Notes: generated from the letters alone by a model not told the origin. A stretch of DNA of 64,000 nucleotides from a virus (IMGVR_UViG_3300011980_000002:32001-96000), one strand, 5' to 3'. Shown: positions 27,813 to 56,170, counted from the first letter of the stretch. A program made the numbers and translations.

Positions 27813-27832
27813 ATTAAAGGAGAAAAAGAAAT

Positions 27833-28909: not shown

Positions 28910-28929
28910 TTCAAAGGAGAAAAAGAAAT

Positions 28930-40235: not shown

Positions 40236-40267
40236 TTCTTAAATATATAAGTATAAATAAATTATTA

Positions 40268-40306
40268 TAGAAGAATTAGAAGAAATTCTAATTCTTCTAT
40301 TTTTTA
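40268..40306 (+). terminator. Rho-independent terminator
   Basis: tagaagaattag / ctaattcttcta followed by a T-tract. Confidence 0.75.
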
Positions 40307-40356
40307 TTTAAATATAAACTTTTAATAATTTAAATTATGAAAGGAAAAAACATAAT

Positions 40357-41703
40357 ATGTTTGAAATAGACAATCTCTATTATGATGATATACAGAGAGA
40401 ATATTCTATGCTTGAACAAGCTTTAGATATTACTGTTAAAAAAGCAGATATAGCGTATGAATACGTATCTAATATGTCAAATGTTTCCATTATGGAAGCT
40501 GATTTGAACATAATGGGTGAATCTGGAGATTATAATGATTTAGCACACCTATATGAAGATGCAACAGCACAGGCTGGTGAGAAGAAAAAAGGAATAATTG
40601 TAACCATTATCGAGGGTATTGGTAAATTTATTTCAGGTCTTCTTGAAAAACTCACAGGTAAGGTTAGTGATAAAAAACTCGAAGAGTTAGCAAATGACCC
40701 AGATGCACCTAAGCAAATAAAAGTTAAAAAAGACCCTAATAAGTTTTTAAAAATGGGTGCAGATATGCTTAATGGTATAATGGATAAAATTAAGCCTGGA
40801 TTTACTTCTAAAGACGAAGATGGTAATAAGAAGTTCGATTTTGTTAGAACTCTTATAACTGGAACAGAAGCACTTGCAGTTGCAGGTGGTGCGTATTTGG
40901 GAGTTAAAAATGCACCAAATATTAAAAAAGGTTTTACCAGCTTGATTGATAAGGGTAAGGATATAATAAACAATCTTAAAGGTAGATTGAAAAGTGCTAA
41001 AGATGAAACTGAAATAGAAGTCATCAATGCGGCAACACATGCTACTCAAAATGCTATAAAGTGTATAGGTCAGAATATGACTGATATTTTCATAGCACCT
41101 TTTATGGGTAATGTGATTGATGCTGAATTCAAAGAGGTTAATACCGAGGAAGATCAGAAGAGTGGTAAAGATAAAAAGGGTGCTGATAAAGGTGATGGTA
41201 AACAATTGCCAGCCGAACAAGAATACAAAACATATAATGGTGGTAGACAAGGTGAACTTCCCCATAAGAAACAAAAAGGACTTCCTGGACCTGGACAAAC
41301 AGCAAGAGATAAAGCTAGACCTAATGAGATGGTTGGTGGAATTGTATACGCCGATGGAGCTAAGCGTAAAAAACCTGATGCACTTCCCGGACCTGGACAA
41401 ACAGCAAGAGATAAAGCTAGACCTAATGAGATGGTTGGTGGAATTGTATACGGTGATGGACCCACTAATTCAAGTAAATATCGTGAAGGTAAGAGGAAGT
41501 TAGCAAACAGAAATAATCGAAGAAAACATCGTAAAGGTGAAATGAATATGGATGAGTCCGCATTAGATATATTTGACGAGTTCAGTTCATATTTAGATGA
41601 TTATGAATATGAGTCTGTTTACGACGATTATGAAACGGACACTTATTCAGATGATTATGAATATGAGTCTGTTTACGATGATTATGACAACTATCTGAAT
41701 TAA
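40357..41703 (+). CDS. Fam-C paralog 1 (internal 34-aa duplication, D/Y/E-rich tail)
   Basis: Shares KPGFTSKDEDGNKKFDFVRTLITGTEALAVAGGAYLG with paralog 2, and the helix IIVTIIEGIGKFISGLLEKL with the family. Confidence 0.75.
   Translation: MFEIDNLYYDDIQREYSMLEQALDITVKKADIAYEYVSNMSNVSIMEADLNIMGESGDYNDLAHLYEDATAQAGEKKKGIIVTIIEGIGKFISGLLEKLTGKVSDKKLEELANDPDAPKQIKVKKDPNKFLKMGADMLNGIMDKIKPGFTSKDEDGNKKFDFVRTLITGTEALAVAGGAYLGVKNAPNIKKGFTSLIDKGKDIINNLKGRLKSAKDETEIEVINAATHATQNAIKCIGQNMTDIFIAPFMGNVIDAEFKEVNTEEDQKSGKDKKGADKGDGKQLPAEQEYKTYNGGRQGELPHKKQKGLPGPGQTARDKARPNEMVGGIVYADGAKRKKPDALPGPGQTARDKARPNEMVGGIVYGDGPTNSSKYREGKRKLANRNNRRKHRKGEMNMDESALDIFDEFSSYLDDYEYESVYDDYETDTYSDDYEYESVYDDYDNYLN
41281..41452 (+). 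repeat. Tandem duplication, period 102 nt (two 70-nt near-identical copies)
   Basis: 41281-41350 and 41383-41452 both encode LPGPGQTARDKARPNEMVGGIVY. Confidence 0.9.
41596..41687 (+). repeat. Direct repeat, period 54 nt
   Basis: gatgattatgaatatgagtctgtttacga(c/t)gattatga at 41596-41633 and 41650-41687, encoding DDYEYESVYDDY. Confidence 0.9.
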
Positions 41704-41711
41704 ATAATATA

Positions 41712-41766
41712 TTGAATAACGAACCATAATTGCTTCAATTTATCGTAATTATGGTTCGTTATTCAA
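41712..41766 (+). terminator. Perfect 20-bp stem hairpin
   Basis: ttgaataacgaaccataatt / aattatggttcgttattcaa. Confidence 0.6.
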
Positions 41767-41795
41767 ATTTCAATAATTTTAGAAAGGATATATTC

Positions 41796-43025
41796 ATGAC
41801 ATACAATCAAATAGTTAATTCATATGTTAATAAAATGAATATGTTGAACCTTGAGTATATTAATAATGATTGTGATTTTCATATGGAATCTGTTTTATAT
41901 GAAAACGATATATTGTATACTGAAGATGTTGAAAACTCCATAAATAATGCAGTTAATAAAAAAAGAAATATAATTCTCAGAATAGTAGATGGTATAATTT
42001 CGTTCATCAATAAAGTAGTTGGTGATATTGGAAAGATGTTCAATAAACAAGTTGAAAGTGATTTTAATAACGCACCTGATGTAGAAACTAAATTTGAAAC
42101 GAACCCTACCGAGACTCTTAGTAAGTGTGAGAGTACACTTGGTAAAGTTGTTGGATTTTTGAAACCTGGATTCACTACAAAAGATGAAGAGGGTAATAAG
42201 AAGTTTTCTCCATTGAAAACACTGATTACTGGGTTAGAGGCTACCGCTGCCGCTGCTGGTACATATATGATTGCAAAAAAATCATTACCTACAATAAAGG
42301 AAAAAGCAACAAAGATTCTTAATGATTGTAAAGGATTAACGAGCAAGTTCAAAGAGGAATCATTCGAGGATAAAATGCTTAAAATTCTTGAGGATAAAAA
42401 TAAAACCGACGATGAAAGAATTAAAGCTGCTAAAGCATTATATAAAAATGACCCAGAAATGCTTAAAAAAGTTAATGAGTTAGAGAAAGAAATAAAAGCT
42501 AATCGTATGACTCCTAGAGAATTTAAACAGGGTATACGAAAAGCAAAAAGTGATAGAGATATAAATCAGAGACAGAATGATAGAGACTATCGTGCAGCAG
42601 TTGCTGGAATGGCTATGGATGGTAAAAACTGGAAAGAAAAACAGGAAGAACAAAAAGCAGAAGTTCAGGCTAAACTGAAGGCTAAAATGGCTAAAGTTAC
42701 CGGCACAAATCCTGAAAATGCAAAAAAAGAAAGTTGGTTTGCTAGATTGTTCGGTAAAGCTAAACAACAATCTGTTCAGAAAATGAATGATCAACAAATG
42801 GCAGCAGAGGCTATTAGTCAGACATCTAAGTATGCAGCAGACGTTCTTAGAGATGCTACAAGGGCTATTTTAAATATAGCAAGAGGAAAAAGTAATAAAT
42901 CTGATAAGGACGAAGTTAAAAACGAACATGTGTCATATTATAATGATGATTGTTATTTTGATTTATATGAATATAATAATGATTATATAGATTATGATAT
43001 AGACAATATGATAACAAACTTATAA
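41796..43025 (+). CDS. Fam-C paralog 2 (aromatic/acidic tail)
   Basis: ATG at 41796 with SD tagaaaggat; the track start at 41730 lies inside the hairpin. KPGFTTKDEEGNKKFSPLKTLITGLEATAAAAGTYMI. Confidence 0.75.
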   Translation: MTYNQIVNSYVNKMNMLNLEYINNDCDFHMESVLYENDILYTEDVENSINNAVNKKRNIILRIVDGIISFINKVVGDIGKMFNKQVESDFNNAPDVETKFETNPTETLSKCESTLGKVVGFLKPGFTTKDEEGNKKFSPLKTLITGLEATAAAAGTYMIAKKSLPTIKEKATKILNDCKGLTSKFKEESFEDKMLKILEDKNKTDDERIKAAKALYKNDPEMLKKVNELEKEIKANRMTPREFKQGIRKAKSDRDINQRQNDRDYRAAVAGMAMDGKNWKEKQEEQKAEVQAKLKAKMAKVTGTNPENAKKESWFARLFGKAKQQSVQKMNDQQMAAEAISQTSKYAADVLRDATRAILNIARGKSNKSDKDEVKNEHVSYYNDDCYFDLYEYNNDYIDYDIDNMITNL

Positions 43026-43053
43026 ATTATAACGAAAGGATAAATGATTAGTT

Positions 43054-44010
43054 ATGGCTAATAATTTTCTAACTAAATATGATGTTCATGACATTAAAAC
43101 TTCTTTTAATATAAAAAAAGTTATGTCTGAGCATAGTATAAATTGTAAAAAAGCTGAGCTTAAAGTATTGACTGAATCTGGTACAGATGAGGACTTCTAC
43201 TACTTATACCAAGAATCTATGAGTGATGCTATTGGAAAACTTGGAGAGATAATAGATGATATAATAAAGAAATTCATTGAATTTTGTAAAGATGTACAGA
43301 TACAGATATTATCAAAGATTAACTCAGTTGAATTTAAGTCAAATGTGCAAAAAATAAACGATAAGCTTAAGTTCAATCCATTCTTAAGAAGTAAATCACA
43401 GACAGTTAGTGATTTTAATCCCAAGATGAAAGATTATATAGAAGCTTCTTCAAAACTTGCTAAGATGGTTGCAAAACTTAAAAGTGGTAATTCAGTATCT
43501 ACTGAAATTGACAACTTTGCAGACTGGTTTGATGATTTAGCTGAGAAGCAAATGAAACAGAGAAAATTGAGTAATGCTGCCATATTTGCAACACTTAAGA
43601 GTTTAATGGAGAAGGTTGATGGTGAAATTAAGAAGATTCGCGATGATGCTAGGGATCTTCTTACAGATGTCAAAGGTATCAAACCTAAAAAAGATGATGA
43701 TGATAACGATATAAATCTTAAATCATCAGCTACTAAACTTTGTAATTATATATCAAGAGTTAGTAGAGCAGCTATAAGGCTCCGTGTAACGACATTAAGT
43801 GAGTATCTTGCAGTATGTAAGAGAGAAATTCTTAATGCTAAAGAAGAAGATGTTAAGAATGAGTCATATGAATATGAAGATAGTTATGATTCGGATTACG
43901 AATATGATTACAGTAATGACGATGATTCTTCAGATGATGATTCAGATGATGATTATGAATACGAATCTGGATATGATTACGAAGACAATTACGATGAGTA
44001 TGATTTTTAA
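43054..44010 (+). CDS. Fam-C paralog 3 (long D/Y/E/S tail)
   Basis: N-terminal LKVLTESGTDE plus helix IIDDIIKKFIEFCKD. C-terminus YEYEDSYDSDYEYDYSNDDDSSDDDSDDDYEYESGYDYEDNYDEYDF. Confidence 0.6.
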   Translation: MANNFLTKYDVHDIKTSFNIKKVMSEHSINCKKAELKVLTESGTDEDFYYLYQESMSDAIGKLGEIIDDIIKKFIEFCKDVQIQILSKINSVEFKSNVQKINDKLKFNPFLRSKSQTVSDFNPKMKDYIEASSKLAKMVAKLKSGNSVSTEIDNFADWFDDLAEKQMKQRKLSNAAIFATLKSLMEKVDGEIKKIRDDARDLLTDVKGIKPKKDDDDNDINLKSSATKLCNYISRVSRAAIRLRVTTLSEYLAVCKREILNAKEEDVKNESYEYEDSYDSDYEYDYSNDDDSSDDDSDDDYEYESGYDYEDNYDEYDF

Positions 44011-44015
44011 ATAAT

Positions 44016-44054
44016 AATATACGGTAATAAGGTATGTCCTTATTACCGTATATT
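44016..44054 (+). terminator. Hairpin terminator (17-bp perfect stem)
   Basis: aatatacggtaataagg / ccttattaccgtatatt. Confidence 0.65.
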
Positions 44055-44058
44055 ATTT

Positions 44059-44104
44059 ATCCGTATTTTCTATATATATATCGATATATTATTTATATGT
44101 AAAA
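44059..44104 (+). promoter_or_regulatory. Extended early-type promoter-like motif (ATCCGTAT variant)
   Basis: atccgtattttctatatatatatcgatatattatttatatgtaaaa. Confidence 0.45.
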
Positions 44105-44135
44105 TAAAATAATATACGAAAGGAGATTCATAATT

Positions 44136-44363
44136 ATGAAATCTCAATTAAAACTAACATCTTATCTCGTTTCATCTTACGAAAGAGAAATGCCATTTAT
44201 ATTGGCATCTTCTGATATAACATTCATCAGATCTGCAATTGATAACATAAATAGCGTTATCAATAATGCATATTATGATGAGTATGATGAAAGAGAGTGT
44301 AACCTTAATTACAAACTAATTAAAATGTGGTCAGAAATGACATACAAATTGATTAGTTTGTAA
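44136..44363 (+). CDS. Small hypothetical protein (75 aa) in a self-contained cassette
   Basis: Has its own promoter-like motif, SD aaaggaga and terminator. Confidence 0.6.
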   Translation: MKSQLKLTSYLVSSYEREMPFILASSDITFIRSAIDNINSVINNAYYDEYDERECNLNYKLIKMWSEMTYKLISL

Positions 44364-44373
44364 TTAAGTTTAA

Positions 44374-44410
44374 AAAGTAATGCATGTGCACATTGTGCAT
44401 TACTTTTTTT
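44374..44410 (+). terminator. Rho-independent terminator
   Basis: aaagtaatgca / tgcattacttt followed by a T-tract. Confidence 0.75.
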
Positions 44411-44487
44411 GAAAATTGTTACTATTAATCGTATAACTTTATATTTTTTAATATAGTATATTAAAAAATATAAAGGAGACATTAGTA

Positions 44488-45015
44488 ATGAATGAAAAAC
44501 TAAAAGAACTTATTGATTATGCTAAGAAGGGGAGATCTGAAACTGTAAATGGATATTATACTAAACTTAACAAGTTGAAAGAATCTAATAAAGATAACAA
44601 GCTTACTGATAGTTCTATTGTTAAGAATTGTCCAAATTATAGTGATACTCTCAAGAGATATGAGGACTTGTTTAATATTATTATAGATATTGAAGACGCT
44701 CATAATGAGAAAGAAAGTTTTAATGATGAGATAAAGCGTTATCGTGAAACTTATAATAATATGATGTCAGTTGGTATCGTTTGTAATAAGCAAGAAACAT
44801 ATAGCACGTGTATGAATAAAATTAAAGATGGTATAGAACATCTTGATACATTATTCGATGCTGCTGAACATAATGCAAAATCATTATCTGATAATATTTC
44901 AGATAGTGATAGAATATGTAATTTATTACTAGGACATTATAAGAATTATATCAAGAGTCAAAAATTGGAAATTGATGCTTGGATAAATGCAGTTACAGAT
45001 GCTCTTAAAAATTAA
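44488..45015 (+). CDS. Hypothetical helical protein
   Basis: SD aaaggagac, with its own terminator downstream. Confidence 0.6.
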   Translation: MNEKLKELIDYAKKGRSETVNGYYTKLNKLKESNKDNKLTDSSIVKNCPNYSDTLKRYEDLFNIIIDIEDAHNEKESFNDEIKRYRETYNNMMSVGIVCNKQETYSTCMNKIKDGIEHLDTLFDAAEHNAKSLSDNISDSDRICNLLLGHYKNYIKSQKLEIDAWINAVTDALKN

Positions 45016-45031
45016 TAAAGTTTCTTAATTT

Positions 45032-45067
45032 AACCCTATAGACAATTTAGTCTATAGGGTTATTTTT
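45032..45067 (+). terminator. Rho-independent terminator
   Basis: aaccctatagac / gtctatagggtt followed by tattttta. Confidence 0.7.
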
Positions 45068-45139
45068 ATCCGAATTTCTTATAAATCGTTTAGATTACAC
45101 AGTTATTTAAAGTTAAATTCAATAGAAAGGGAATAGTTT

Positions 45140-46153
45140 ATGGATAATACATTGCTATATTCTATACACTCAGATGTGATGATTGAAGACACTTTACTGT
45201 TCATAGACAGCTTATCTGATATATACTATGAAGACGGAGAAGCTTCAAATAATGAGGTTGTTGATGAAAAAAGTAAAAATATGTTTAGACGAGCATTTGA
45301 TGCTGTAATGAAATTTATAAATGGTCTTATTGAAAAAATTAAAACTCTTTTCCAAAGAATGGGTCTTAGTAAAGAAGAAAAGAAAGAGTTTGATGAGATA
45401 AGAAAAGCTATAATGGCTGACCCTGATATTAAAAATAAATCATTTACTGTAGACGATTACAGAAAAGCTAAAGCTCAGGAAGAAGCTATTATTAAAGAAA
45501 TGGAAGCCATACAAAAAGCTGCTGAACAGGCTGGTAATGATGAACAAGAAGCTGAAGTTATAGACAGAGGTATGGAAAAAGTTAAAGGTATGATGAGTGG
45601 TGTTGTTGATGTTATGGGTACTGCTGGTAAATCTATTGCTACAACTATAGGTGCACAACAGATACTCCATATGGCAGAATCTAATAGAAACTTTGCTCAA
45701 ATGGTTTATGGTATGCTTGAAAATGAAGAGGGTCTTACAAAACAACTTGAAGATGCTATAGGTAATAAGCAAACTAATAAGTTTAAAAAAAGCATTAAGT
45801 CTTGTACCAAATGGTTGTCATGGCATAAGTTTAAGGCTATGATGTTTGGTACTATATGTAAAGATATGAGTAAATCATTTAGTCATACTATAAAAGATTT
45901 AAAAGAATTAACAAATCCTAAGAATTCTATAGGTGCACACTTAAATCGTGCGAAGCATCTCAATATGGTTAATAATGTTGTTGGGGGAGTTAATCAAAAA
46001 TATGGTACAGATTTTAATCTTATAGACATTGCAAAAGCCGGTGTTCAAGTAAAACATGCTATAGATGATACTAAATCAACAGTATCTAAAGCTAGTGGAT
46101 TTGTCAATAGAACTGTGAATAATTTTAAGAATAGGAATAATAATAATGCATAG
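45140..46153 (+). CDS. Fam-C paralog 4
   Basis: N-terminal DVMIEDTLLFIDSLSDIYYEDGE plus helix RRAFDAVMKFINGLIEKIKTLF. Gly/Ala-rich segment VVDVMGTAGKSIATTIGA. Confidence 0.6.
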   Translation: MDNTLLYSIHSDVMIEDTLLFIDSLSDIYYEDGEASNNEVVDEKSKNMFRRAFDAVMKFINGLIEKIKTLFQRMGLSKEEKKEFDEIRKAIMADPDIKNKSFTVDDYRKAKAQEEAIIKEMEAIQKAAEQAGNDEQEAEVIDRGMEKVKGMMSGVVDVMGTAGKSIATTIGAQQILHMAESNRNFAQMVYGMLENEEGLTKQLEDAIGNKQTNKFKKSIKSCTKWLSWHKFKAMMFGTICKDMSKSFSHTIKDLKELTNPKNSIGAHLNRAKHLNMVNNVVGGVNQKYGTDFNLIDIAKAGVQVKHAIDDTKSTVSKASGFVNRTVNNFKNRNNNNA

Positions 46154-47072
46154 TTTAGATGAAGCAAGTATTAGATATGATATAATAACAGAATCGTTAG
46201 ATATCGACTTTTACAAAAATGATGCAATACTTAGTACTTGTATATTATTAGAGTCTGATAATACAAGTAGCGTTGTTGAAAAACGACATAATATACTAAA
46301 AGAATTTATAAAAGTCGTTATTGAAAAAATTCAAAAATTGATAGATTTCATTAAATCTAAATTTAATAAGGATAGAATAGATGTCATTAATAACATCAGT
46401 AAAGAAAATCCAAGAGCTACTATTACAGTTAGCAAGGACCCGAATGTGGTTATACAAGCTGCAAATGAGTCTATAAAAGAAATTGAAACTGCAATTTCTA
46501 AACAGAAAAAAGGTATTTTCAGAAAAGAAGATGGAAGTATTAATGTTAGTAAAGTTATATATACAGCAGTTGGTGCTGCAACAGCAACTACTATCGGTAT
46601 TATAGTGGTACCTAAACTTATAAATACTATAAATGGACTTCTTGGAAAACTTAAAAATCTTGGTAGAGATGTTATGACAAATATTGACCAAGATAAAAAT
46701 TCGTTCAATAAGGCTAAAAGTAAAACTCCAGCTAAAACTTCATTAGCTAGTAAGGTTGTTTATAATGTCGGTAAGGGAATTGGGTTTAGTGTAGGTAATA
46801 CTGTGAAAACATCTGTTACAACTGCTGCGAATAGAGGATTTGTACCAACCTTCAATATATCCCTAAATTTACCGGACCCAAAAATGTATCAACAACAGAT
46901 GCAAGCACAAAATGAAATTGTTAAGGCTATCTCTAATACCACTAAGGTATTGGAAACTACTTTAAATAGGGATTTATTGAATAACCCAGATATCAATAAA
47001 GTTGCAAATGAAGTATCTGATGAAAAAAGTGATATGAATGATAAACAAACATCTCAACAAAATAATCAATAA
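46146..47072 (+). CDS. Fam-C paralog 5
   Basis: ILSTCILLESDN plus helix LKEFIKVVIEKIQKLIDFIKSKF. Hydrophobic helix VIYTAVGAATATTIGIIVVPKLI. ATGCATAG start/stop overlap with the preceding gene. Confidence 0.7.
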   Translation: MHSLDEASIRYDIITESLDIDFYKNDAILSTCILLESDNTSSVVEKRHNILKEFIKVVIEKIQKLIDFIKSKFNKDRIDVINNISKENPRATITVSKDPNVVIQAANESIKEIETAISKQKKGIFRKEDGSINVSKVIYTAVGAATATTIGIIVVPKLINTINGLLGKLKNLGRDVMTNIDQDKNSFNKAKSKTPAKTSLASKVVYNVGKGIGFSVGNTVKTSVTTAANRGFVPTFNISLNLPDPKMYQQQMQAQNEIVKAISNTTKVLETTLNRDLLNNPDINKVANEVSDEKSDMNDKQTSQQNNQ

Positions 47073-47090
47073 TAAGTTTGGAGATAAATT

Positions 47091-48341
47091 ATGGCAAAAA
47101 TAATCTCTGAAGTTCGTAATATAAAAGATAACACTTTTGAATATGAAAAGCGTCTTCAAAGTCCTTACAATAGACTAATTGATAAGGCTCCAACACCTGT
47201 AACGTATTTTCATATTAATGATAATGAGTCTACAGTTAATGAAGGATATCAAGATATTGAAGAAATTATTGGACCCAAATCTCCATTAAGATTTGATAGA
47301 ATTGAGGGATTTCCTTTATACGGAGTCCCTCAAATTAATCCAAATATACAAGAAGATGATCAAGGAATAAATATAACATTTGAAGCTGAATGTTTTATTT
47401 TACCACATACGATAAAACCTAATCCAAATGATTTCTTCTTAATCGATGTATTGGATATTCATGATGTATACATATTCAAAATTACAGATATTGCGTATGA
47501 TAATATTCACCCAGACAATTTTTATAAGACACAGTTTAGGTTAGAATTAACTTCTAAAGAGAAATTAGCATACTTAGAAAAACAAGTTATAAATAACTAT
47601 ACTTGTATTATAGATAATATTGGTACCGATAGTCATTGTATTATAGAAACTGATAAGTTTACTAAATATCAGAAAGTTAAAGATACCTATGATGATTTAG
47701 TAAATCTTTATGTTAGTATATTTTATAATGAAAAATATAATTGCTTTTTAGGTGAATATCCATGTAATAAAAAACTCTACGACCCTTATATGGTTGAGTT
47801 TGTTAATAAGTGGAATCTATTCAATAGTAAAGATAAAATTAATTCACTTATCATTAGTCAAGAAATTGATGATAATAAGTTTAAATTAAAATATGAGAAA
47901 TCTGTGTGGAGATTTATTGAGAAAAATGATTATAGTTTATTAAATAAATTCATTTTTTATATTTATCGAGCAGATACTCTGAAGTATACTACATTTGCAT
48001 TATATAGAGATGCTACTGTAAATATACTAGATATTCCTTTATCATTTTATAGTGACACTGACACGAGATGTATATTTAATGATGAGTTTATTAATAATAT
48101 AAAAGATAATAAAGAGTGTAAGAGTTCTTATGGTAATTTATTAAAGAAGTATATACTAAAAGAAAAATTAGATATAAATTCTATACCATTAGATATTAAT
48201 GAAACTTTATATAGCTTAGAAGCAGATGTCGAATTTTTCTTTATAACTCCAATGATTCTTTATATTATGAAAAAGATAATGAAAGATAGTTTTAAGTATA
48301 GTATTAGTTATAATACTATGAATGATAATAAAATGTATTAA
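47091..48341 (+). CDS. Hypothetical protein (likely virion-associated by context)
   Basis: 416-aa ORF with SD ggaga. No family recognised. Confidence 0.6.
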   Translation: MAKIISEVRNIKDNTFEYEKRLQSPYNRLIDKAPTPVTYFHINDNESTVNEGYQDIEEIIGPKSPLRFDRIEGFPLYGVPQINPNIQEDDQGINITFEAECFILPHTIKPNPNDFFLIDVLDIHDVYIFKITDIAYDNIHPDNFYKTQFRLELTSKEKLAYLEKQVINNYTCIIDNIGTDSHCIIETDKFTKYQKVKDTYDDLVNLYVSIFYNEKYNCFLGEYPCNKKLYDPYMVEFVNKWNLFNSKDKINSLIISQEIDDNKFKLKYEKSVWRFIEKNDYSLLNKFIFYIYRADTLKYTTFALYRDATVNILDIPLSFYSDTDTRCIFNDEFINNIKDNKECKSSYGNLLKKYILKEKLDINSIPLDINETLYSLEADVEFFFITPMILYIMKKIMKDSFKYSISYNTMNDNKMY

Positions 48342-48348
48342 TACGAAG

Positions 48349-48427
48349 AATTGTTTTTTTTTTTGTATGAATTATATTTAAATTACGAAAGGAAACAATA
48401 ATTAATTATGTATGATGATTTATATTT
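48349..48427 (+). repeat. Duplicated regulatory region plus 5' CDS (copy 1 of 2)
   Basis: aattg-T11-gtatgaattatatttaaattacgaaaggaaacaataattaattatgtatgatgattt is nearly identical to 52401-52479. Confidence 0.85.
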
Positions 48428-49409
48428 AGACAATTTAGATTTTGACATATTTATAGAGTCTACAGAACTAATATTTGAAAGTGTTAGTTGTAATAATGAA
48501 ATATCTTTATTATTAGAAGATGGTAATGATAATAAGAAAAAGAATATTATCATGAGAGCCGTTGATGCAATAATGAAAAAGATTAGAGAAATTATAGATT
48601 GGATAAAATCTAAATTATTTGGTGGTAAAAATAAGAAATATGAAGATTTTCTAAAACTTGCAGATAGTAAAGTAAGTGGATTATCTGTGGAATTTGATAA
48701 ATCTCCTAAGAAAGTTTATGAATTATATTCTGATATATTTAAAGCAATTTCTAAGAATTATGATAAATTATCAGGAAATGATAATTCCAAATTTATCGAA
48801 GAGGTTAAAGAGAAATTAAGTAGAGATATTAGCAAAGAATATTTATCTCCAAAAGAATGTATAGATTTATTTTACAAATATAATAAACTATCTTTAGACT
48901 ATAAGGGATTAAGTGATAAGATTAGTAATTATATTAAGAGTAAAGCTAATAGTGGAATAGATTGCTCGCAAGAACAAAAAGCTTTATCTTTAATTACTAG
49001 ATTAATGAATGATATAAGAAATAATATGAGCAAGATATCACCTACAACTATATCTAGTAATAATAGTGTCATAAGTAAAGTGAAGACATGGGCTAATGAC
49101 AATCCTGATGAAGCCGCTTTACTTATCGCAAACCTGAGTGCACTTGGATTAGTTACAGGAATGGCTGTTGGTGTTAAAGCCATGAAAGGTGCTGATGATA
49201 GGATTAAAAATAGTATGAAAGAACATGATGCTCGTATGAAAGCTGAAAAAGAGGTATTAGATAAGAAGCATAAAGATAATATGAAAGTTCTTGATGAGAT
49301 GCATAGAAAGATTGATGATGTAATAAAAAATGTTGATTTAGGTGATACTGAAGCAGTTAAAAAAGCTGAAAAAGAAATGGAAAGAATAAGGAAACAATAT
49401 AGACATTAA
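48408..49409 (+). CDS. Fam-C paralog 6
   Basis: DIFIESTELIFESVSCNNEISLLLEDG, IMRAVDAIMKKIREIIDWIKSKLF, hydrophobic helix AALLIANLSALGLVTGMAVGV. Confidence 0.8.
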   Translation: MYDDLYLDNLDFDIFIESTELIFESVSCNNEISLLLEDGNDNKKKNIIMRAVDAIMKKIREIIDWIKSKLFGGKNKKYEDFLKLADSKVSGLSVEFDKSPKKVYELYSDIFKAISKNYDKLSGNDNSKFIEEVKEKLSRDISKEYLSPKECIDLFYKYNKLSLDYKGLSDKISNYIKSKANSGIDCSQEQKALSLITRLMNDIRNNMSKISPTTISSNNSVISKVKTWANDNPDEAALLIANLSALGLVTGMAVGVKAMKGADDRIKNSMKEHDARMKAEKEVLDKKHKDNMKVLDEMHRKIDDVIKNVDLGDTEAVKKAEKEMERIRKQYRH

Positions 49410-49428
49410 TATGGTAAGGAATTTTTTT

Positions 49429-50250
49429 ATGATTAATAAATATGACATAGAAACCGAATTATTTATAGAATCTATGGAATTATTATTTGCTAGAATTGAT
49501 AGTGAAAATTCAATCTCATTATTACTTGAATCTGGTGATAATCCTAAAAGAGAAAGTGTATTATTGAAAGCTATATCTGCTATAGTTAAGAAGATAAATG
49601 AAATTCTCAATTCAATTACAGATAATTTATCTGGCAAAGATTCTGATAAATACTATAGGTTTATAAAGCAAGTAAGTGGTAAGATTCCGGATTGTAAAAT
49701 AGCAGTTTCAGTGGATATTAGTAAGTTATATGAGGTATATTCTAAATCTCATAAAATTATTCTTGATAACTATAGAACTTCTAAAGATTATAGTTATATA
49801 GATGAGGTTGATAAATTGTTTACAAATGAAATCAATAAAAGTACCACGGTAACTTTAAATGAAATTGTATTATTATTTAACAAATATAAAGACTTAGCTA
49901 ATAAATACGATAATCTCACATATGATATAGAAAGATTGATATATAGGAAATCTAAATCTAATGAGAGCGTTAGTGATTTAAAAAGTGCATTGCTTAAAAT
50001 TACTAAGATTGCAAATGGTATAAGAAACACTGTATCTAAGATAGCACCTGAAAAAGTAATAAGAACTACAGAATTTAAGAATAGTATTAAATCTTCAATA
50101 GATAACGATACTATTAAAACTAATGCAATTCCAGATGGTATCTTAAATGCTATGAGGATACACGGTGAACATACCAGAATGCATGATGAAAATAACGAAA
50201 TGCATAATCAGAATCATCAATTACATTTAGCAATGAATGGAATGATGTAA
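49429..50250 (+). CDS. Fam-C paralog 7
   Basis: ELFIESMELLFARIDSENSISLLLESG, LLKAISAIVKKINEIL. The ATG at 49429 has SD taaggaa; the track start at 49411 is 6 codons upstream. Confidence 0.75.
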   Translation: MINKYDIETELFIESMELLFARIDSENSISLLLESGDNPKRESVLLKAISAIVKKINEILNSITDNLSGKDSDKYYRFIKQVSGKIPDCKIAVSVDISKLYEVYSKSHKIILDNYRTSKDYSYIDEVDKLFTNEINKSTTVTLNEIVLLFNKYKDLANKYDNLTYDIERLIYRKSKSNESVSDLKSALLKITKIANGIRNTVSKIAPEKVIRTTEFKNSIKSSIDNDTIKTNAIPDGILNAMRIHGEHTRMHDENNEMHNQNHQLHLAMNGMM

Positions 50251-50266
50251 TAAAGGGAATATCTAT

Positions 50267-51010
50267 ATGAATTATGATGATATAGAATATATTAAAAATG
50301 AAATATTTATAGAAAAATCCATTTTATATATTGAAAAATATAATAGTGATTTAAGTATATCATTATTACTAGAAGACGGTGATACTGGTTCTGGTGGCAT
50401 TGCTACTATTATAAATAAATCATTAGATAAATTGGAAGGTTTATATAATTCTCTCATTAATAAGTTTTTTAATAATAAGAATCGTCAGTTTGAAAGTTTC
50501 TTATTAAAGATTGGTAAGAAAATATCTAAAGAAGATTTTTCTATTTCATTTAATATAAATCCTGAAAAATTATACGAAAATCAACTTGACAGTATCAAAC
50601 TTATTAGTGATAATTATGATAAACCTGAAAATGTTAATAAGTTTCTTGATGTAAATACAGTTGTACCAGACTTAGGTAAACCTACAGATTTAACAATTGA
50701 AGAATGTATAGATATATTTCATAAGTTTGAAAGATTATCAATTTTATGTGAGAAAACTTCAAAGACTATGTATAAATCTATCATGGTAAGAATAAAAAAT
50801 CTTGGTGAAAGACAGCATGTTTCTAATGTTGGATTATATGAAATGATACATATAATGAATATTATTCATATAAATATTAAAAGATTTAGTCCAGAAGCAA
50901 TATATAATAATAGTAAATTTAAATATGCTGTTAAAAAACTTGTAAATAAAGATCCTAATAATATCAAACTTATACCAAATAAGTTTAGAGATGATTTTGA
51001 TTTAAAATAA
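50267..51010 (+). CDS. Fam-C paralog 8
   Basis: EIFIEKSILYIEKYNSDLSISLLLEDG. Confidence 0.75.
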   Translation: MNYDDIEYIKNEIFIEKSILYIEKYNSDLSISLLLEDGDTGSGGIATIINKSLDKLEGLYNSLINKFFNNKNRQFESFLLKIGKKISKEDFSISFNINPEKLYENQLDSIKLISDNYDKPENVNKFLDVNTVVPDLGKPTDLTIEECIDIFHKFERLSILCEKTSKTMYKSIMVRIKNLGERQHVSNVGLYEMIHIMNIIHINIKRFSPEAIYNNSKFKYAVKKLVNKDPNNIKLIPNKFRDDFDLK

Positions 51011-51056
51011 AACCTATTTATTAAAAAGAATAAAATGAAAGGATTATTATTTTAAA

Positions 51057-52346
51057 ATGAAAAAAATAGATGCTGTAAGATATACTACAAAAGAATTTAA
51101 AAAATGGGTTAACTATACAGAAAAAAATTCAAAAGCTGGATTGGGAAATACTACATATGATAGTCCAGGTCCATATAATATGAATGCAGGGTCTAATAAC
51201 TATACAGTATTTGCTGATTACTATAGGCAAAAAACCGGAATATCTGTTCAAGGAATGCCATGGTGTTTTAGTGAAGGTAATATAAAACTTGAAGATTCCT
51301 ATAAGGATATTTCAGATATACACCCTGGTGAAAAGGTATTAAGTGGTATTGGTAATAGATATAATATCGTTATATCTAACACACCACATGATGAATATGT
51401 TATAAAAGTATCATCTAATAAGACTAATCCGTTGATAGGGACTCCAGACCATCCAGTATACTCCATTAAGAATAATAATGAACCTCAATTAAATCCACTT
51501 AGTGATTTATCGATAGGTGATATTTTACTGATATATTCATATGAATATAATGATGAATCATCAATAACTTATAATGGGATACAATACTCAAAATCTATTA
51601 TAACAGATATTGAGGTATTGAAAGATAAACAAACTGTTTACACGTTAGCAGTTGATGGTGATCATACATATACAGTTAATAATGTAGCAGTTCACAATTG
51701 TGATAGCTTTGTTGATACTGTATTCATACATTTGTATGGTGTAGAGAGAGCTAAAAAGTTATTAAATGGATTTTCTGCGTATACCCCTACATCTGCTGGA
51801 TACTTTAAAGCTGTTAGCAGGTGGTTTAGTAGACCTGAGCCTGGAGATATAATATTCTTTAAAAATAGTGAAAGAATAAATCATACTGGATATGTACATG
51901 ATGTATCTGGTAATACAGTTTATACCGTAGAAGGAAATACTTCATCAGGTAATAATGTAGTAGTTGCTAATGGTGGTTGTGTTGCTCTTAAATCATATGA
52001 TATACATAATCCAAGGATAGCTGGATATGGTAGACCTGATTATGAAGGTGTATTAAGAGACTTTAATCCTGAAGGATTTGTCGAAGGTTGGTTTAAAGCA
52101 GCAGATAATGTTCGTTGGTGGTATCAGTTTAGTAATGGAACATATGCTAAAAATAATGGTACGAATAACGGATGGTATAAGATTAAAAATAAATGGTATT
52201 TATTTGATACTAATGGTTATATGTTAACAGGGCATCAGACTATTGGTGGACAAGAATACTATTTATGTGAAGATCCAAATAAGGTTGAAGGTGCATTGAT
52301 GAAAACTGATGAAAATGGTGCACTAACTATTTGGGAAAGTGAATAA
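51057..52346 (+). CDS. Endolysin precursor: CHAP/NlpC-P60-like amidase-peptidase interrupted by a mini-intein, with C-terminal cell-wall-binding repeats
   Basis: Exteins QGMPW|CDSFVD..GDIIFF..INHTGYV..TVEGNTS carry the Cys/His signature. The C-terminus GWYKIKNKWYLFDTNGYMLTGHQTIGGQEYYL resembles CW_binding_1 repeats. Confidence 0.8.
   Translation: MKKIDAVRYTTKEFKKWVNYTEKNSKAGLGNTTYDSPGPYNMNAGSNNYTVFADYYRQKTGISVQGMPWCFSEGNIKLEDSYKDISDIHPGEKVLSGIGNRYNIVISNTPHDEYVIKVSSNKTNPLIGTPDHPVYSIKNNNEPQLNPLSDLSIGDILLIYSYEYNDESSITYNGIQYSKSIITDIEVLKDKQTVYTLAVDGDHTYTVNNVAVHNCDSFVDTVFIHLYGVERAKKLLNGFSAYTPTSAGYFKAVSRWFSRPEPGDIIFFKNSERINHTGYVHDVSGNTVYTVEGNTSSGNNVVVANGGCVALKSYDIHNPRIAGYGRPDYEGVLRDFNPEGFVEGWFKAADNVRWWYQFSNGTYAKNNGTNNGWYKIKNKWYLFDTNGYMLTGHQTIGGQEYYLCEDPNKVEGALMKTDENGALTIWESE
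51264..51698 (+). mobile_element. Mini-intein (145 aa, Hint domain) inserted at the catalytic Cys of the lysin
   Basis: Begins CFSEGNIKL, contains TPDH (TxxH block B) and VYTLAVDGDHTYTV (block F), and ends VAVHN followed by Cys+1. Confidence 0.8.
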
Positions 52347-52400
52347 TGTCCTAATTGGCATATATTAATATTAAAGATAAAAAATAGTATAGAAAAAAAA

Positions 52401-52479
52401 AATTGTTTTTTTTTTTGTATGAATTATATTTAAATTACGAAAGGAAACAATGATTAATTATGTATAATGATTTGTATAT
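52401..52479 (+). repeat. Duplicated regulatory region plus 5' CDS (copy 2 of 2)
   Basis: See 48349-48427. Confidence 0.85.
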
Positions 52480-53305
52480 AAAAGCTTTGAATGATGTGAT
52501 ATTCTGGGAATCTATAGATTTAGCATTATCTTCAATAGATATGAATGACGGAATAGCCGTTCTATTAGAGGATGGTGAAACTAATTCTAAACAAGCTAAT
52601 ATCGTCATGAGAGCGGTAGATGCTATAATGAAAAAGATTAAAGAAATTATAGATTGGATAAAAGGAATATTTTCCGATAAAAGTGAACAGAAATATATAG
52701 ATTTTCTAAAACAATTGGAGTCTTATGCTAAGGATACTCGTATAGAGTTTGGAAAAGATCCATCACAAGCATGCAAACGATATATAGATATACTTAAAAT
52801 TGTATCAAAAAATTATAATAGAAATTATGATAAAGATGATTTTAATAACGATGGTTATTGGTATTCGGACATAAATAACCTTTTGAAAAAGGAAGTTGGA
52901 AGTTCTGAATTAACAATATCAGACTGTCTAAAATTCTCAGAGAAGTTCAAAAATCTTAGTTATGAGTATAAAAATCTATCTGATAAGCTATATTCTACAA
53001 TTAAAACTAAGAGTAAGGCTGGGATAGACACTAAGAATGATCGAAAACTATTAACTTTAATCGGAAAGATTGAAAGTGACATTAGAAAACAAATAATGAT
53101 GCTAACACCTAGTATCATAAGTAGGAAAGGTTCGGTAAAAGAAAAACTTAAGTTGCTTTTAGCCGATCCTAGAACTAGTAAGCTTGCGTATATAGCAGCA
53201 TCCTTAGGGATAGGTGTTGTAGCAGGTAAAGCGTATATAAATAAAATGGATAAAACCCGTGAACAGAGAATACGATATGAAGAACTTGAAAAGCTTGTAT
53301 TTTAG
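52460..53305 (+). CDS. Fam-C paralog 9
   Basis: VIFWESIDLALSSIDMNDGIAVLLEDG, IVMRAVDAIMKKIKEIIDWIKG, hydrophobic helix LAYIAASLGIGVVAG. Confidence 0.8.
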   Translation: MYNDLYIKALNDVIFWESIDLALSSIDMNDGIAVLLEDGETNSKQANIVMRAVDAIMKKIKEIIDWIKGIFSDKSEQKYIDFLKQLESYAKDTRIEFGKDPSQACKRYIDILKIVSKNYNRNYDKDDFNNDGYWYSDINNLLKKEVGSSELTISDCLKFSEKFKNLSYEYKNLSDKLYSTIKTKSKAGIDTKNDRKLLTLIGKIESDIRKQIMMLTPSIISRKGSVKEKLKLLLADPRTSKLAYIAASLGIGVVAGKAYINKMDKTREQRIRYEELEKLVF

Positions 53306-53449
53306 GGTTTTATAGCTCAGTACTAAAATGATTGGAATCACTGTATTCTGATAGGGATACAATTATGAGATATTAATATTGTGATATATATATATATATC
53401 GTAATAGAGATAGGAAATGTGTAATATTAACAAGAAAGGAAAACATAAA

Positions 53450-54481
53450 ATGAATGATTTTTATTTAGAAATTCTTAACGATGATATATTTTGGGAATCT
53501 ATGGATTCAACATTATCTTCAATAGATATGAATGATGAAATAATAACTATGTTAGAAGATGGAGAATCTAATTCTAAACAGGCTAATATTATCATGAGAG
53601 TAGTTGATGCTATAATGAGGAAAATTAGAGAAATCATAGATTGGATAAAAGGGATATCATCTAATAAAAATGAACAGACTTATGCAGATTTTTTAAAACA
53701 ATTAGAATCTCGTGCTAGAGATATTCGTATAGAATTTGATAAGGATCCATCATATGCGTATACACAATATGTCGACATATTCAAAATCATATCAAAAAAT
53801 TATGATAAAAGTGGATCTAATGATAATAAAGACTGGTTTTCAGATATAGATGATATTTTAAGTAGAGAACCGAAAAACTCAGAATTAACAATATCAGATT
53901 GTCTAAAATTATCAACAAAGTTCAAAGACCTTAGTAATAATTATAAAAATTTATCTGATAAAGCATATAATATAATTAGAACTAAAAGTAAGAATGGTGT
54001 TGATACCAAAGATGAGCGAAGAGTACTAACTATAATCGGAAAGATTGAGACGGATATCAAGAAACGAATGATGATGTTAACACCTAGTGTCCTGAGTAAG
54101 AAAGGTTCTATAAAAGAGAAACTTAAATTAGTTTTGGGTGACCCAAGAACACCAGGTAAACTTGCACAACTTGCATTATCCTTAGGAATAATTGCAGCAA
54201 GTGCAATATATAAAAAAACAAGCGATGCTATCACGAAGAAGAAAAGATTTGATGATGCGATTTCTGATGTAATGGACAATAGAATAGAGAACGATATGCT
54301 CTTAAATAAAGTTAAAGGTGGATATAATGTTAGAGATGCTGATGTTAAGAAAAAACATGGTCGTTTAGATGAGGTGTATATAAAATATCAAAATTCCGAT
54401 GGGGATAATAAATATAATAAATATAGTAGAAAAGATTATAAAGAAAAATATAAAGGCAATGATCTTTGGCAAATATATTAA
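53450..54481 (+). CDS. Fam-C paralog 10
   Basis: ATG at 53450 with SD agaaaggaaa. DIFWESMDSTLSSIDMNDEIITMLEDG, IIMRVVDAIMRKIREIIDWIKG, LAQLALSLGIIAASAIY. Confidence 0.8.
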   Translation: MNDFYLEILNDDIFWESMDSTLSSIDMNDEIITMLEDGESNSKQANIIMRVVDAIMRKIREIIDWIKGISSNKNEQTYADFLKQLESRARDIRIEFDKDPSYAYTQYVDIFKIISKNYDKSGSNDNKDWFSDIDDILSREPKNSELTISDCLKLSTKFKDLSNNYKNLSDKAYNIIRTKSKNGVDTKDERRVLTIIGKIETDIKKRMMMLTPSVLSKKGSIKEKLKLVLGDPRTPGKLAQLALSLGIIAASAIYKKTSDAITKKKRFDDAISDVMDNRIENDMLLNKVKGGYNVRDADVKKKHGRLDEVYIKYQNSDGDNKYNKYSRKDYKEKYKGNDLWQIY

Positions 54482-54525
54482 TCGTTATTTATCAGAAGAC
54501 TAATACTATGTATCAAATCATGAAT

Positions 54526-54561
54526 AATAGAGTATATAGGAATATTCCTATATACTCTATT
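54526..54561. terminator. Bidirectional terminator between convergent genes
   Basis: aatagagtatatagg / cctatatactctatt, a perfect 15-bp stem. Confidence 0.7.
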
Positions 54562-54570
54562 TAATATTAT

Positions 54571-55320
54571 CTATTTATCATTTTCTTGTTTAAAATATTT
54601 ACGAAGCTCGTTTTTATCTTCACACCTTTTAACAAACTCTTCTGGTGACAGTTCAATTGACATTTTTTGTAATGCTGATACATAATTTAACATCATATTA
54701 CCAATATTGCTATTATTTTTATATTCTTCACTGAGCTCTTTCTCAACCTTATCTCTAATTGGTTTTGAGAACAGTTCCATAGCGTAACTTAGGTCTTGAT
54801 AATCATTTAATAGTTTCTCACCATCAGCAAGTGCTTTACTTGCTTTTGCATATGAAACATCAATAGGATTTGAGTTCTTGTAATCTTTCAACATCTTATT
54901 ACAGTCGTCTAATTGCTTGCTAATATCCTTATTCCTAGCATTCCTAGCTTCTTTAAGTTTAGCATATGCTATTTTCGAATTTTTTATTAGAAGTTCTGGA
55001 TCATTTCCGTATTTAGCAATATAAGCTTTTTTATATTCTCTTTCATATTGTCGTATGAGCCTATCAATTTTACGAGTATGTGCATCTTTAAAAATATTTT
55101 TTTTAACTCATTTACATATAGCTCTTATCTTTTCAACTATAGTGTTTATAACTTTCATAAAAATATTTTCTTTATTAGAACTATCATTTGAAGATTCTAA
55201 CAACAATTCTACAGATGATTCCATAGATAGTCTATCAATGATTAATTGAATATTTTCAATAAATATTTCGTTACTTAATATGATACAATCCTTGTTTTTT
55301 TTTTTGCATAATTGTATCAA
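54571..55320 (-). pseudogene. Fam-C paralog 11, disrupted (track fragments 55108-55320 and 54571-54894 are in one frame)
   Basis: A single in-frame TGA (55108-55110) lies exactly where paralogs have the Trp of IIDWIK. The frame is otherwise open for 249 codons. There is no in-frame ATG at the 5' end; the only ATG (55309-55307) is out of frame across an A11 tract. Confidence 0.65.
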
Positions 55321-55321
55321 C

Positions 55322-56170
55322 CTACTTTCTATAATATTCTAAAGCTAATCTATCAACATCTCTTTTATTATAAGATTTAAATCTCATAGCTTTATTCATA
55401 TTAAGTAATGTTAGTTCACATACAGCTTCATTATATGCTTCATTAACATCATTAGTTGAGTTTTCATTAGTCTTATTCATTAATACAGATTCAAATAATC
55501 CTGGTTGATATATGGTCTTATTTCTTTCATCTCTATTAAGAATAGCTAATCTTAGTTTTATTGCTGATTCAGATTTTACTTCATCATCATTTGCTAAACT
55601 ATCTTCTATTTCTTTAGCTTCTTCTCGTCTTTTTCTTATCTTTTCCTTCTCATAATCAACAACATCTTTTACATTGTTTTTTACGATTTCACTTACTTCA
55701 TCCAATGATGCATCTTTAGAGATTTCATCCAATACAGATTTTCTTTCGTCATCTAATCTGAATTCTGCTATCTCTTCTGGATTCTCTTTAGTATCTTTAT
55801 CTATAGATTCTTTTACTAATTTAGTAACTTTCTCCAATACAGTTTCTAAAGATTTATTACCATTCTTAATAGCCTCTTTAATATAACATAACAATCCTTC
55901 ATCGGCAGTTTGTTTATTAACGAAGTATTTGAACTTCTCATCTATATCTTTATTATTCGTATTAATATACTCATTATCTAAAGGAATACTTTGTTTATAG
56001 AATTTCCCAAATATATGACAAAGACAATCATTTATTCCTTTATCAGTATTTACTATTAATACATTATTTCTGTATAATGGAGAGTTTTTAAATTTAATAC
56101 TATCTTCAGATTTTCTTTTTTCATCATTTACTCTACTGATGAAATCTAAAACTCTATTATCATTTTCCAT
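55322..56170 (-). CDS. Hypothetical acidic helical protein
   Basis: SD aaaggatt upstream on the minus strand. Part of the minus-strand operon 60822 to 54571. Confidence 0.6.
   Translation of the reverse strand: MENDNRVLDFISRVNDEKRKSEDSIKFKNSPLYRNNVLIVNTDKGINDCLCHIFGKFYKQSIPLDNEYINTNNKDIDEKFKYFVNKQTADEGLLCYIKEAIKNGNKSLETVLEKVTKLVKESIDKDTKENPEEIAEFRLDDERKSVLDEISKDASLDEVSEIVKNNVKDVVDYEKEKIRKRREEAKEIEDSLANDDEVKSESAIKLRLAILNRDERNKTIYQPGLFESVLMNKTNENSTNDVNEAYNEAVCELTLLNMNKAMRFKSYNKRDVDRLALEYYRK

Follow-up and report, generated by a model that had tools for sequence, protein, structure and literature searches.

Giant phages package numerous proteins alongside their DNA, and internal head proteins that form paralogous families, or that travel into the host with the phage genome, have been described in several phages. 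In phiKZ, gp92–97, gp162 and gp163 share the PF12699 domain and are proteolysed, and gp90, gp92, gp93, gp95 and gp97 are injected with the DNA, with the roles of the paralogs called an open question (bioRxiv 10.1101/2024.03.24.586471). SPN3US carries the paralogous ejection proteins gp53 and gp54 (family A) and a 17-member head paralog family (PMC10052503; PMC5105663), and the internal proteins of T4 are basic, variable between related phages, and packed and ejected with the DNA, IPI having an anti-restriction function (PMC9026906). Here we analyse an array of eleven related gene copies, designated A to K, at positions 40,357–55,320 of a 64,000-nucleotide stretch of viral DNA (IMGVR_UViG_3300011980_000002:32001-96000; hereafter, the window). 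Systems of this kind are familiar from phiKZ, SPN3US and T4; what is new here is a largely unannotated superfamily in an uncultivated clade. We interpret its members as probable internal head proteins, processed by a protease and in some cases ejected with the DNA, that reflect a lineage-specific expansion.

A preliminary description of the window had proposed ten plus-strand open reading frames (ORFs) and a disrupted minus-strand copy as one eleven-member family. All ten ORFs are present at the starts proposed for them, most of those with an intergenic leader being preceded by a GAAAGGA-type ribosome-binding site, and the minus-strand copy is both real and disrupted. An all-versus-all comparison bore out the kinship: blastp linked F, G, H, I and J, which are full-length paralogs (subfamily S1), with E values of 1e-10 to 1e-115, and A and B, which form a pair, at 1e-23. 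When searched against all 234 window ORFs, an F–J profile recovered the N-terminal fragment of K (55111–55338, E 4e-14) and E (3e-6), and an A/B profile matched F, E, D and I at 4e-6 to 3e-3; no non-member ranked above members in these searches. Profile–profile comparison with hhalign, using profiles built with orthologs of three related phages, gave 99.3% for A–B, 96.4% for E–S1, 86.6% for B–S1, 83% for D–S1 and 57% for A–S1, with four neighbouring non-family genes, included as controls, all at 2.2% or below. After distant homologs were added, the A-type and S1 profiles aligned at 96.2% (E 2.6e-9), with the motif described below, a KKK-II helix and a downstream 'V.F.KDP' element all in register.

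Sequence alone links member C least well to the others (6.8% against S1). We joined it to the family because it has the A-type pattern AELKVLTESGT..LYQE, because a C-like paralog is placed between A-like and D-like copies in a distant array, and because the AlphaFold models of C and F have the same order of helices and strands and overlapping Foldseek neighbours. D and E are joined through the N-terminal module of about 110 residues, and K shares the N-terminal part of S1. The eleven are thus all related, but they are not the uniform family first proposed: they constitute one superfamily of four or five subfamilies (A/B, C, D and E/S1 types) that have mainly this N-terminal module in common, with a core fold also shared by F and C.

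The order of elements in the module is the same throughout: an acidic helical leader, a hydrophobic-x-Glu motif followed by Asp/Ser-Gly, and then a Lys-rich stretch and a basic amphipathic helix. The leaders are 31–55 residues long, helical in both AlphaFold models, with an isoelectric point (pI) of about 4 and a charge of −6 to −11, and many members have an additional h-(I/T/W)-E-S element (h, hydrophobic) around residues 12–18. The N-terminal segment had been said to end in hhLE(D/S)(G/D/S); in all members and about 40 relatives we found [L/M/I/Y]-x-E followed by D, S or G at residues 31–56, with A, B and D departing from 'LLE' (Table 1); across relatives, about 50 sequences have the motif. 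The motif Glu is the only invariant column in an alignment of nine window paralogs, one of five invariant columns across 18 S1/E sequences, and one of two (E55 and G57) in 24 distant A-type proteins whose mean identity is 19%. In both AlphaFold models the motif forms a break between two long helices, with low confidence there in F but not in C. The amphipathic helix also held up, its hydrophobic moment of 1.8–2.4 being reached by at most 4 of 500 shuffles in nine of ten members, as did the high variability of the C-termini, which in the distant A-type proteins are acidic tails with FxES elements. The proteins are 247–448 residues long and predicted to be mostly soluble and helical, and the parts downstream of the leader, the predicted mature proteins, are basic (pI 9.0–9.7) in eight of ten members.

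The motif has the properties of a candidate site for a prohead protease. The T4 enzyme follows the rule L/I-x-E, cleavage in phiKZ follows S/A-x-E, and SPN3US proteins are cut at A-x-E with Ser preferred at P1′; N-terminal propeptides serve as capsid-targeting sequences, and several sites per propeptide are common (PMC9026906; PMC10052503). A strict five-residue version of the motif, [LIM][LIT]E[DS][GSD], which was derived from the family itself, is present in seven of ten members and occurs only once in the 13,584 residues of 36 other window proteins, at residue 8 of the capsid protein. The predicted propeptide of that protein contains several further sites of this kind (Table 1). In the phiR1-37 capsid protein, GenBank annotates the 'mature N-terminus at Ser87', and the preceding residues are MLQE (MLQE↓S; arrows mark annotated or candidate cleavage positions); a three-way alignment equates this position with LLSE↓SV (E112) in the window protein and ILQE↓SV in AR9. 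Because the phiR1-37 mature N-terminus aligns with LLSE↓SV, the capsid lineage of the window appears to obey the T4 gp21 rule L/I-x-E. The paralog motif thus appears, from sequence, to be the same as that at the capsid maturation site predicted by homology.

Comparison with T4 and SPN3US shows how far this resemblance extends. T4 IPI, IPII, IPIII and Alt each have an N-terminal address peptide cut at L/I-x-E, and the window motif obeys the same L-x-E rule. The T4 internal proteins and the window members have no sequence or fold relationship, however; the T4 targeting sequence measures about 10 residues on proteins of 8–20 kDa, whereas the window leaders measure 31–55 residues on proteins of 28–50 kDa, and no T4 gp21 homolog was found in the window. 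SPN3US, compared here by description only, is likewise a giant phage with a large head paralog family; the propeptides at the N-termini of its proteins hold several cleavage sites, at which the cut falls after Glu and Ser is the favoured P1′ residue (PMC10052503; PMC5105663). SPN3US differs in its A-x-E motif and in the length of the gp53 and gp54 propeptides, 111–137 residues.

A connection to known internal head proteins came from member C, which matched the Pfam family PF12699 (phiKZ_IP) over residues 176–256 at 32.5 bits (gathering threshold 27; E 7e-8), and whose closest homologs carry a precomputed PF12699 mark. We also obtained AlphaFold models of F (predicted local distance difference test (pLDDT) 81.5, predicted template modelling (pTM) score 0.66) and C (pLDDT 77.5, pTM 0.72) and compared them with BFVD using Foldseek. 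The nearest named neighbour of both models was an AR9 'Virion protein' (A0A172JI05), matched by F at E 8.5e-4 and by C at 1.1e-4, each with probability 1.0. Three unnamed entries, G4KKD6, A0A8S5R6C3 and A0A141HS65, were common to the two lists, and further matches of F and C were virion or head proteins of Psa21, Noxifer, 201phi2-1, PhiPA3, RSL2, RSF1 and Ea35-70, the matches of the C model to virion proteins of phiKZ-like phages having probabilities of 0.77–0.9 and E values of 0.03–0.13. Against the PDB, Foldseek returned only generic long-helix proteins and no relative.

AR9 was also singled out by sequence. Among 116 AR9 and phiKZ ORFs, the top match of the family N-terminal profile was AR9 g096 (268 amino acids, 'virion protein' in GenBank), at E 0.0024 and colinear over 120 positions; judging from length and organism only, A0A172JI05 is probably the same protein. 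Like the window members, g096 has the layout ELLNE↓GLSNGLKKIIKKLSELIQRIKEWI ... IEIDPDK. Its sequence similarity to the family is marginal and, unlike the array, it is, in the 29-kb AR9 stretch examined, a single gene, which lies about 11 kb from the capsid gene on the opposite strand.

The phiKZ paralogs also invite comparison. Like the window array, gp92–gp97 are paralogs that have diverged and lie in tandem among the head genes of a jumbo phage encoding a multisubunit RNA polymerase, and a gp99-like virion gene accompanies both arrays, the product of 47091–48341 being weakly similar to phiKZ gp99. The N-termini of gp92–97 also end in x-L-E followed mostly by S, D or G (VLLE↓S, LSLE↓S, DSLE↓G, DSLE↓D and ASLE↓N), and an internal ISLE↓D with a KK..IIKKIV..I helix in gp93 resembles the window module. 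Differences are evident as well. The P3 residue is Leu, Met, Ile or Tyr in the window, in keeping with the T4 rule, versus Ser or Ala in phiKZ; the window leaders are longer (31–55 residues), helical and conserved as a module; and, unlike the phiKZ paralogs, ten of the eleven members are not recognised by PF12699 and profile–profile scores are low. The probably Gram-positive host of the window phage also sets it apart from phiKZ.

The genomic setting is that of a jumbo phage. The array begins right after a scaffold-like gene and the capsid gene, its eleven copies lying between the capsid gene and the next structural module and enclosing a head–tail joining gene. The nearest cultured relatives of the capsid protein belong to the AR9/PBS1, Staphylococcus S6-type and phiR1-37 jumbo phages, at about 24% identity, AR9 being the closest. 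Genes for the gyrase B and A subunits lie immediately 5′ of the capsid region, and the window further encodes a multisubunit RNA polymerase β subunit (10585–12891; phrog_3295, E 3e-81), a PhuZ-like tubulin (21286–22416; phrog_4733, E 1e-12), a terminase and a UvsX-like recombinase. RNA polymerase β and PhuZ-like tubulin are hallmarks of phiKZ/AR9-type jumbo phages. On the strength of the capsid kinship and the RNA polymerase, PhuZ, gyrase, terminase and UvsX genes, we assign the window to an uncultivated jumbo phage of the AR9/phiKZ kind. Its GC content is 27%, and its host is probably Gram-positive, as suggested by an endolysin that joins a CHAP domain to choline-binding repeats. A nucleotide search of the whole interval against GenBank phages gave no match, nor did tblastn of C, F and one distant homolog against the same phages.

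With an S1 profile, a word-indexed search of 5.8 billion proteins yielded no more than 17 clusters, located on contigs of about 210–223 kb or on short fragments. When 1.84 billion cluster representatives (50% identity) were searched exhaustively by HMMER for the N-terminal module, 66 matched at E ≤1e-3, about 40 of which are distant proteins of 230–600 residues with the same layout. A pattern scan of IMG/VR for distant A-type relatives gave 103 pattern matches, none of which was confirmed. On one distant contig of 27.7 kb (L011), two 'virion structural protein' genes are followed by five tandem paralogs, among which an A-like copy, a C-like copy and a D-like ortholog occur in this order. Because this contig keeps the tandem A-like, C-like and D-like copies, the array is ancient.

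Copy-number variation in related genomes, which had been suggested as a check, was seen in three close relatives (L001, L002 and L004), all of which have the array with gains and losses of copies. L001 lacks F and G and has one split copy, and L004 lacks H. None of the three has an ortholog of E, in the place of which stands an S1-like paralog of 247–254 amino acids; a close 308-amino-acid relative of E (P0022) is present in public protein collections. The ratio of nonsynonymous to synonymous substitutions (dN/dS) between window and L004 members is 0.12–0.44, indicating purifying selection and hence functional genes. Between 38484–44010 of the window and 3041–8168 of L004, synonymous divergence is 0.12 for the capsid gene but exceeds 1.7 for A, B and C, a change of about 15-fold across one gene boundary. 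Because synonymous divergence jumps in this way beside the capsid gene, we attribute the difference to allele replacement by recombination and not merely to faster change in place. A recombination junction is marked just 3′ of the capsid gene.

More recent duplication is evident within the array. I and J are recent duplicates (74–80% over 600 nucleotides), and F and I share 167 nucleotides (48309–48475 and 52361–52527, 78% identity) that include about 100 nucleotides of upstream non-coding sequence with a T-run and TATTTAAATTACGAAAGGA; because upstream non-coding DNA is part of the match, this duplication carried the regulatory region with it, the region 5′ of I deriving from that of F. In the manner of cassettes, a number of members have a T-run hairpin and a promoter-like region of their own ahead of them, and TTTAAAT...GAAAGGA-like elements occur 5′ of several members.

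Of the readings considered, capsid-internal or ejected proteins, as first proposed, is the best supported: C passes the phiKZ_IP threshold, the structural neighbours are virion proteins, the L-x-E site is of the type seen at the predicted maturation site of the capsid protein, acidic leaders precede predicted mature parts that are mostly basic, and the genome is of the AR9/phiKZ type. We consider it likely that the members are protease-processed internal head proteins. They would be made late in infection as precursors, each with a 31–55-residue acidic helical leader, after which a short exposed linker would present the hydrophobic-x-Glu and Asp/Ser-Gly residues ahead of the basic amphipathic helix. 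The leader, possibly together with that helix, may serve as an address for delivery of the precursor to the core of the prohead during assembly, where a protease of the T4 gp21 type would cut after the motif Glu; the second h-I/T-E↓S site, about 20 residues upstream in many members, would probably be cut too. Once the acidic leader had been removed, the mature protein, helical and in most cases basic, would stay in the head together with the DNA. The analogy with phiKZ gp90, gp92, gp93, gp95 and gp97 and the T4 internal proteins suggests that at least some members may exit along with the DNA on infection.

Several observations weigh against this interpretation. Capsid targeting, cleavage, head retention and ejection are steps that we infer, and the conserved E-(D/S)-G could be a helix-capping turn instead of a cleavage site. 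The overall acidity of A and C sets them apart from classical internal proteins. PF12699 had no match in the other nine intact members or in 22 distant A-type homologs, and hhalign scores between C and the phiKZ paralogs were low, 18.6% against gp93–95 and 3.7% for the C-type alignment against gp92, gp93, gp94, gp95 and gp97. The Foldseek template modelling (TM) scores were modest, at 0.35–0.48, and all-helical proteins are prone to false matches; the AR9 'virion protein' label is the depositor's annotation. Finally, the 64-kb window, beyond which the genome extends for about 160 kb, yielded no prohead protease. A phmmer search with the AR9 protease against all window ORFs found no gp21-type homolog, and when 30 other window proteins were scanned against Pfam, PHROGs and NCBIfam, the only sign of a protease was one weak PHROG match. 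That match, to 'head maturation protease' at E 0.002, was to the C-terminal part of a 647-residue ORF at 35416–37359, for which a PDB sequence search identified no protease. This ORF, which lies directly 5′ of the acidic scaffold-like and capsid genes, has no family assignment and is the only TGA-terminated gene among 46 examined.

Proteins that are addressed to the prohead need not stay there, and the members could instead be components of the prohead core or scaffold that are targeted and cut, then degraded and expelled before DNA packaging, like T4 gp22, gp67 and gp68. The position of the array directly 3′ of the acidic scaffold-like and capsid genes would suit such a role, as would the long-helix character of the members and the presence of several h-x-E sites in each, including C-terminal sites of the FxE↓S type in A-type tails; T4 core proteins are cut into several fragments that leave the head (PMC9026906). 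We nevertheless regard this explanation as unlikely. Candidate sites are concentrated in the first 31–66 residues rather than distributed along the whole protein, the basic mature parts with their confident compact models fit retention with the DNA, and the closest annotated relatives are mature-virion proteins. A set of eleven fast-diverging scaffolds would moreover be out of the ordinary, given that scaffolds have to fit the capsid protein, which here is 94–99% conserved.

The speed of divergence itself raises the alternative that the members are unpackaged, fast-evolving host-takeover or anti-defence proteins encoded in the late region, with the module as a structural or oligomerisation element and the Glu motif as a helix cap. 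The contrast between A and B (about 50% and about 42% identity to relatives) and the capsid protein, the mosaic synonymous divergence, the cassette-like provision of several genes with their own terminator and promoter region, and the lack of a family annotation for ten of the eleven members are all consistent with it. The presence of the motif at the capsid maturation site as well, the match of C to phiKZ_IP, the virion proteins among the structural neighbours, and the embedding of the array among head genes in two unrelated phage lineages make it quite improbable in our view.

A lysis or membrane role had been offered as an alternative, since the lysin gene sits inside the array; holins, antiholins, spanins or exclusion-type proteins grouped around the endolysin would be examples. 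We looked for support in the Gly/Ala-rich hydrophobic helix that had been ascribed to most members. Such segments do exist in A, B, D, E, F, I and J, the strongest of the family being VIYTAVGAATATTIGIIVV in member E, but transmembrane-like hydropathy (about 1.95) is confined to E and F, the only members in which the 19-residue maximum reaches at least 1.6. The segments of A, B, D and J are below the transmembrane level, C, G and H lack one altogether (0.66–0.94), and the position of the segment differs between subfamilies, so that a membrane-active helix as a family feature is weakly supported. The members are also large, mostly soluble helical proteins, predicted to form helical bundles, and not small proteins with a true transmembrane helix; the ten members scanned have no lysis-category match in Pfam or PHROGs; and half of the array adjoins the capsid gene, far from the lysin. 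We therefore rejected a lysis role as very improbable. Kinship with tape-measure or tail-assembly proteins, hinted at by weak PHROG tape-measure/tail matches for F and an A-like L011 protein (E 1e-3 to 6e-8 for the two, with partial matches of F at 1e-3 to 2e-2) and by four proteins of 1,000–1,150 residues, tape-measure-like at their N-termini, at the tail of the exhaustive search, was rejected as scarcely credible: the matches cover only the amphipathic and Gly/Ala-rich helices and hence are compositional, the members are far too short (F has 333 residues, tape-measure proteins usually >600), the array lies in the head module between the capsid gene and the head–tail joining gene, and the Foldseek neighbours are head or virion proteins. 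Across the ten members scanned, PHROGs gave no usable match for any, and Pfam for C only.

Table 1 Array members, neighbouring genes and their conservation. Identities are amino-acid identities to the window proteins in the close relatives L001, L002 and L004; arrows mark candidate cleavage positions.
Feature	Coordinates	Strand	Description	Identity to relatives
Capsid protein	38484..40235			94–99%
Capsid predicted propeptide	38484..38819	+	h-x-E↓(S/D) sites E10, E60, E66 and E112 within first 112 residues	
A	40357..41703	+	448 aa, A-type; leader 1–55 (IMGE↓SG)	~50%, N-terminal 215 residues only
B	41796..43025	+	409 aa, A paralog; leader 1–43 (LYTE↓DV); predicted mature part basic, tail acidic Tyr-rich	42–43%
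C	43054..44010	+	318 aa; leader 1–41 (VLTE↓SG); PF12699 at 176–256	73–76%
Non-member	44488..45015	+	conserved 175-aa protein, function unassigned, phrog_27316	
D	45140..46153	+	337 aa; leader 1–31 (IYYE↓DG); predicted mature part basic	86–88%
E	46146..47072	+	308 aa; leader 1–36 (ILLE↓SD)	
Non-member	47091..48341	+	head–tail joining/virion structural protein (PF24214, phrog_3013)	98%
F	48408..49409	+	333 aa, S1 subfamily; leader 1–37 (LLLE↓DG)	60%
G	49429..50250	+	273 aa, S1; leader 1–34 (LLLE↓SG); no hydrophobic segment	
H	50267..51010	+	247 aa, S1; leader 1–36 (LLLE↓DG); no hydrophobic segment	
Non-member	51057..52346	+	CHAP endolysin with choline-binding repeats, apparent mini-intein inside	90–92%
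I	52460..53305	+	281 aa, S1; leader 1–37 (VLLE↓DG)	
J	53450..54481	+	343 aa, S1; leader 1–36 (TMLE↓DG)	
K	54571..55309	−	disrupted S1-like copy; LLLE↓SS site, Glu codon 55195–55197	
Copies after lysin			copies in relatives	34–44% to any window member

The minus-strand copy K is disrupted in two ways. Its ATG (55309–55307) is out of frame with the body across a run of 11 A (55295–55305), and an in-frame TGA at 55108–55110 falls exactly at the family's conserved Trp in the IIDWIK helix (TGG to TGA). Reading of TGA as Trp was rejected, as 46 genes contain 100 TGG codons, no in-frame TGA and one TGA terminator; because the genome uses the standard code, the TGA must reflect either a nonsense mutation or an error in sequencing, and only the window phage has it. 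The frame break, by contrast, recurs. In all four genomes the minus-strand copy starts ATG-C-A(n)-C with the ATG out of frame with the body, the A-run measuring 11, 11, 11 and 9 in the window, L001 (near 17326), L002 (near 17731) and L004 (near 19423), respectively. A run of 10 A would yield an intact ORF of 266–270 residues in the three relatives, and in L001 a TAA immediately precedes the body in its own frame, which offers no other start codon. This arrangement suggests that the minus-strand copy may be expressed via slippage or phase variation on the A-run; alternatively, the frame break may stem from a homopolymer assembly error.

Additional features were noted within and around the array. 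Following its leader, member A has a second LYE↓D site, the amphipathic helix, a Gly/Ala-rich segment and an acidic Tyr-rich tail, and it contains an internal tandem repeat of 102 nucleotides (41265–41460, 90% identity) encoding LPGPGQTARDKARPNEMVGGIVY. The tails of A, B and C are acidic and Tyr-rich and are made of short DDYEYE-type repeat units (repeat coordinates 41590–41687, 42954–42997 and 43867–43985, respectively), the tail of C, residues 266–318, being predicted to be disordered. The ORF at 44488–45015 was considered as a truncated family member and rejected (hhalign at most 1.5%, profile E 0.008). In the lysin gene, a 145-residue mini-intein (51264–51698; CFSEG...VHN↓C) appears to interrupt the CHAP endolysin at its apparent catalytic Cys; Pfam Intein_splicing scored 31.9 bits on the insert, under the threshold of 35.8, and lysins of the same length in the three relatives suggest that the mini-intein is present there too. 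In another related contig (L006, 2509–4235), the capsid gene is called as two (334 and 212 amino acids) instead of one of 583, for which an insertion, an intron or a frameshift is possible. A second paralog family occupies 26841–30135 of the window, with three consecutive genes (323, 358 and 401 amino acids) that match phrog_5070 and phrog_7964; two of the three match hexapeptide-repeat (left-handed β-helix) models.

That C-termini vary, copy numbers change and alleles are replaced suggests a diversifying cargo attached to the common N-terminal module. As a speculative extension, which we hold to be possible but doubtful, the module might be a portable address for capsid loading and ejection, attached to exchangeable effectors with anti-defence or membrane-remodelling functions (for example, helping to build an early protective compartment in a Gram-positive host), with cassettes swapped by recombination and the minus-strand copy under phase variation by poly-A slippage.

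If the members are indeed internal head proteins, the array extends the theme of injected paralogs to an uncultivated clade of low-GC jumbo phages, probably with Gram-positive hosts, through a sequence superfamily that is mostly missed by Pfam and PHROGs. Its signature, in which h-x-E↓(D/S)G stands between an acidic leader and an amphipathic helix, could allow packaged proteins, and the specificity of the protease, to be predicted from metagenomic genomes, and the juxtaposition of a capsid protein conserved at 94–99% with neighbouring genes at 35–50% points to where such phages diversify.

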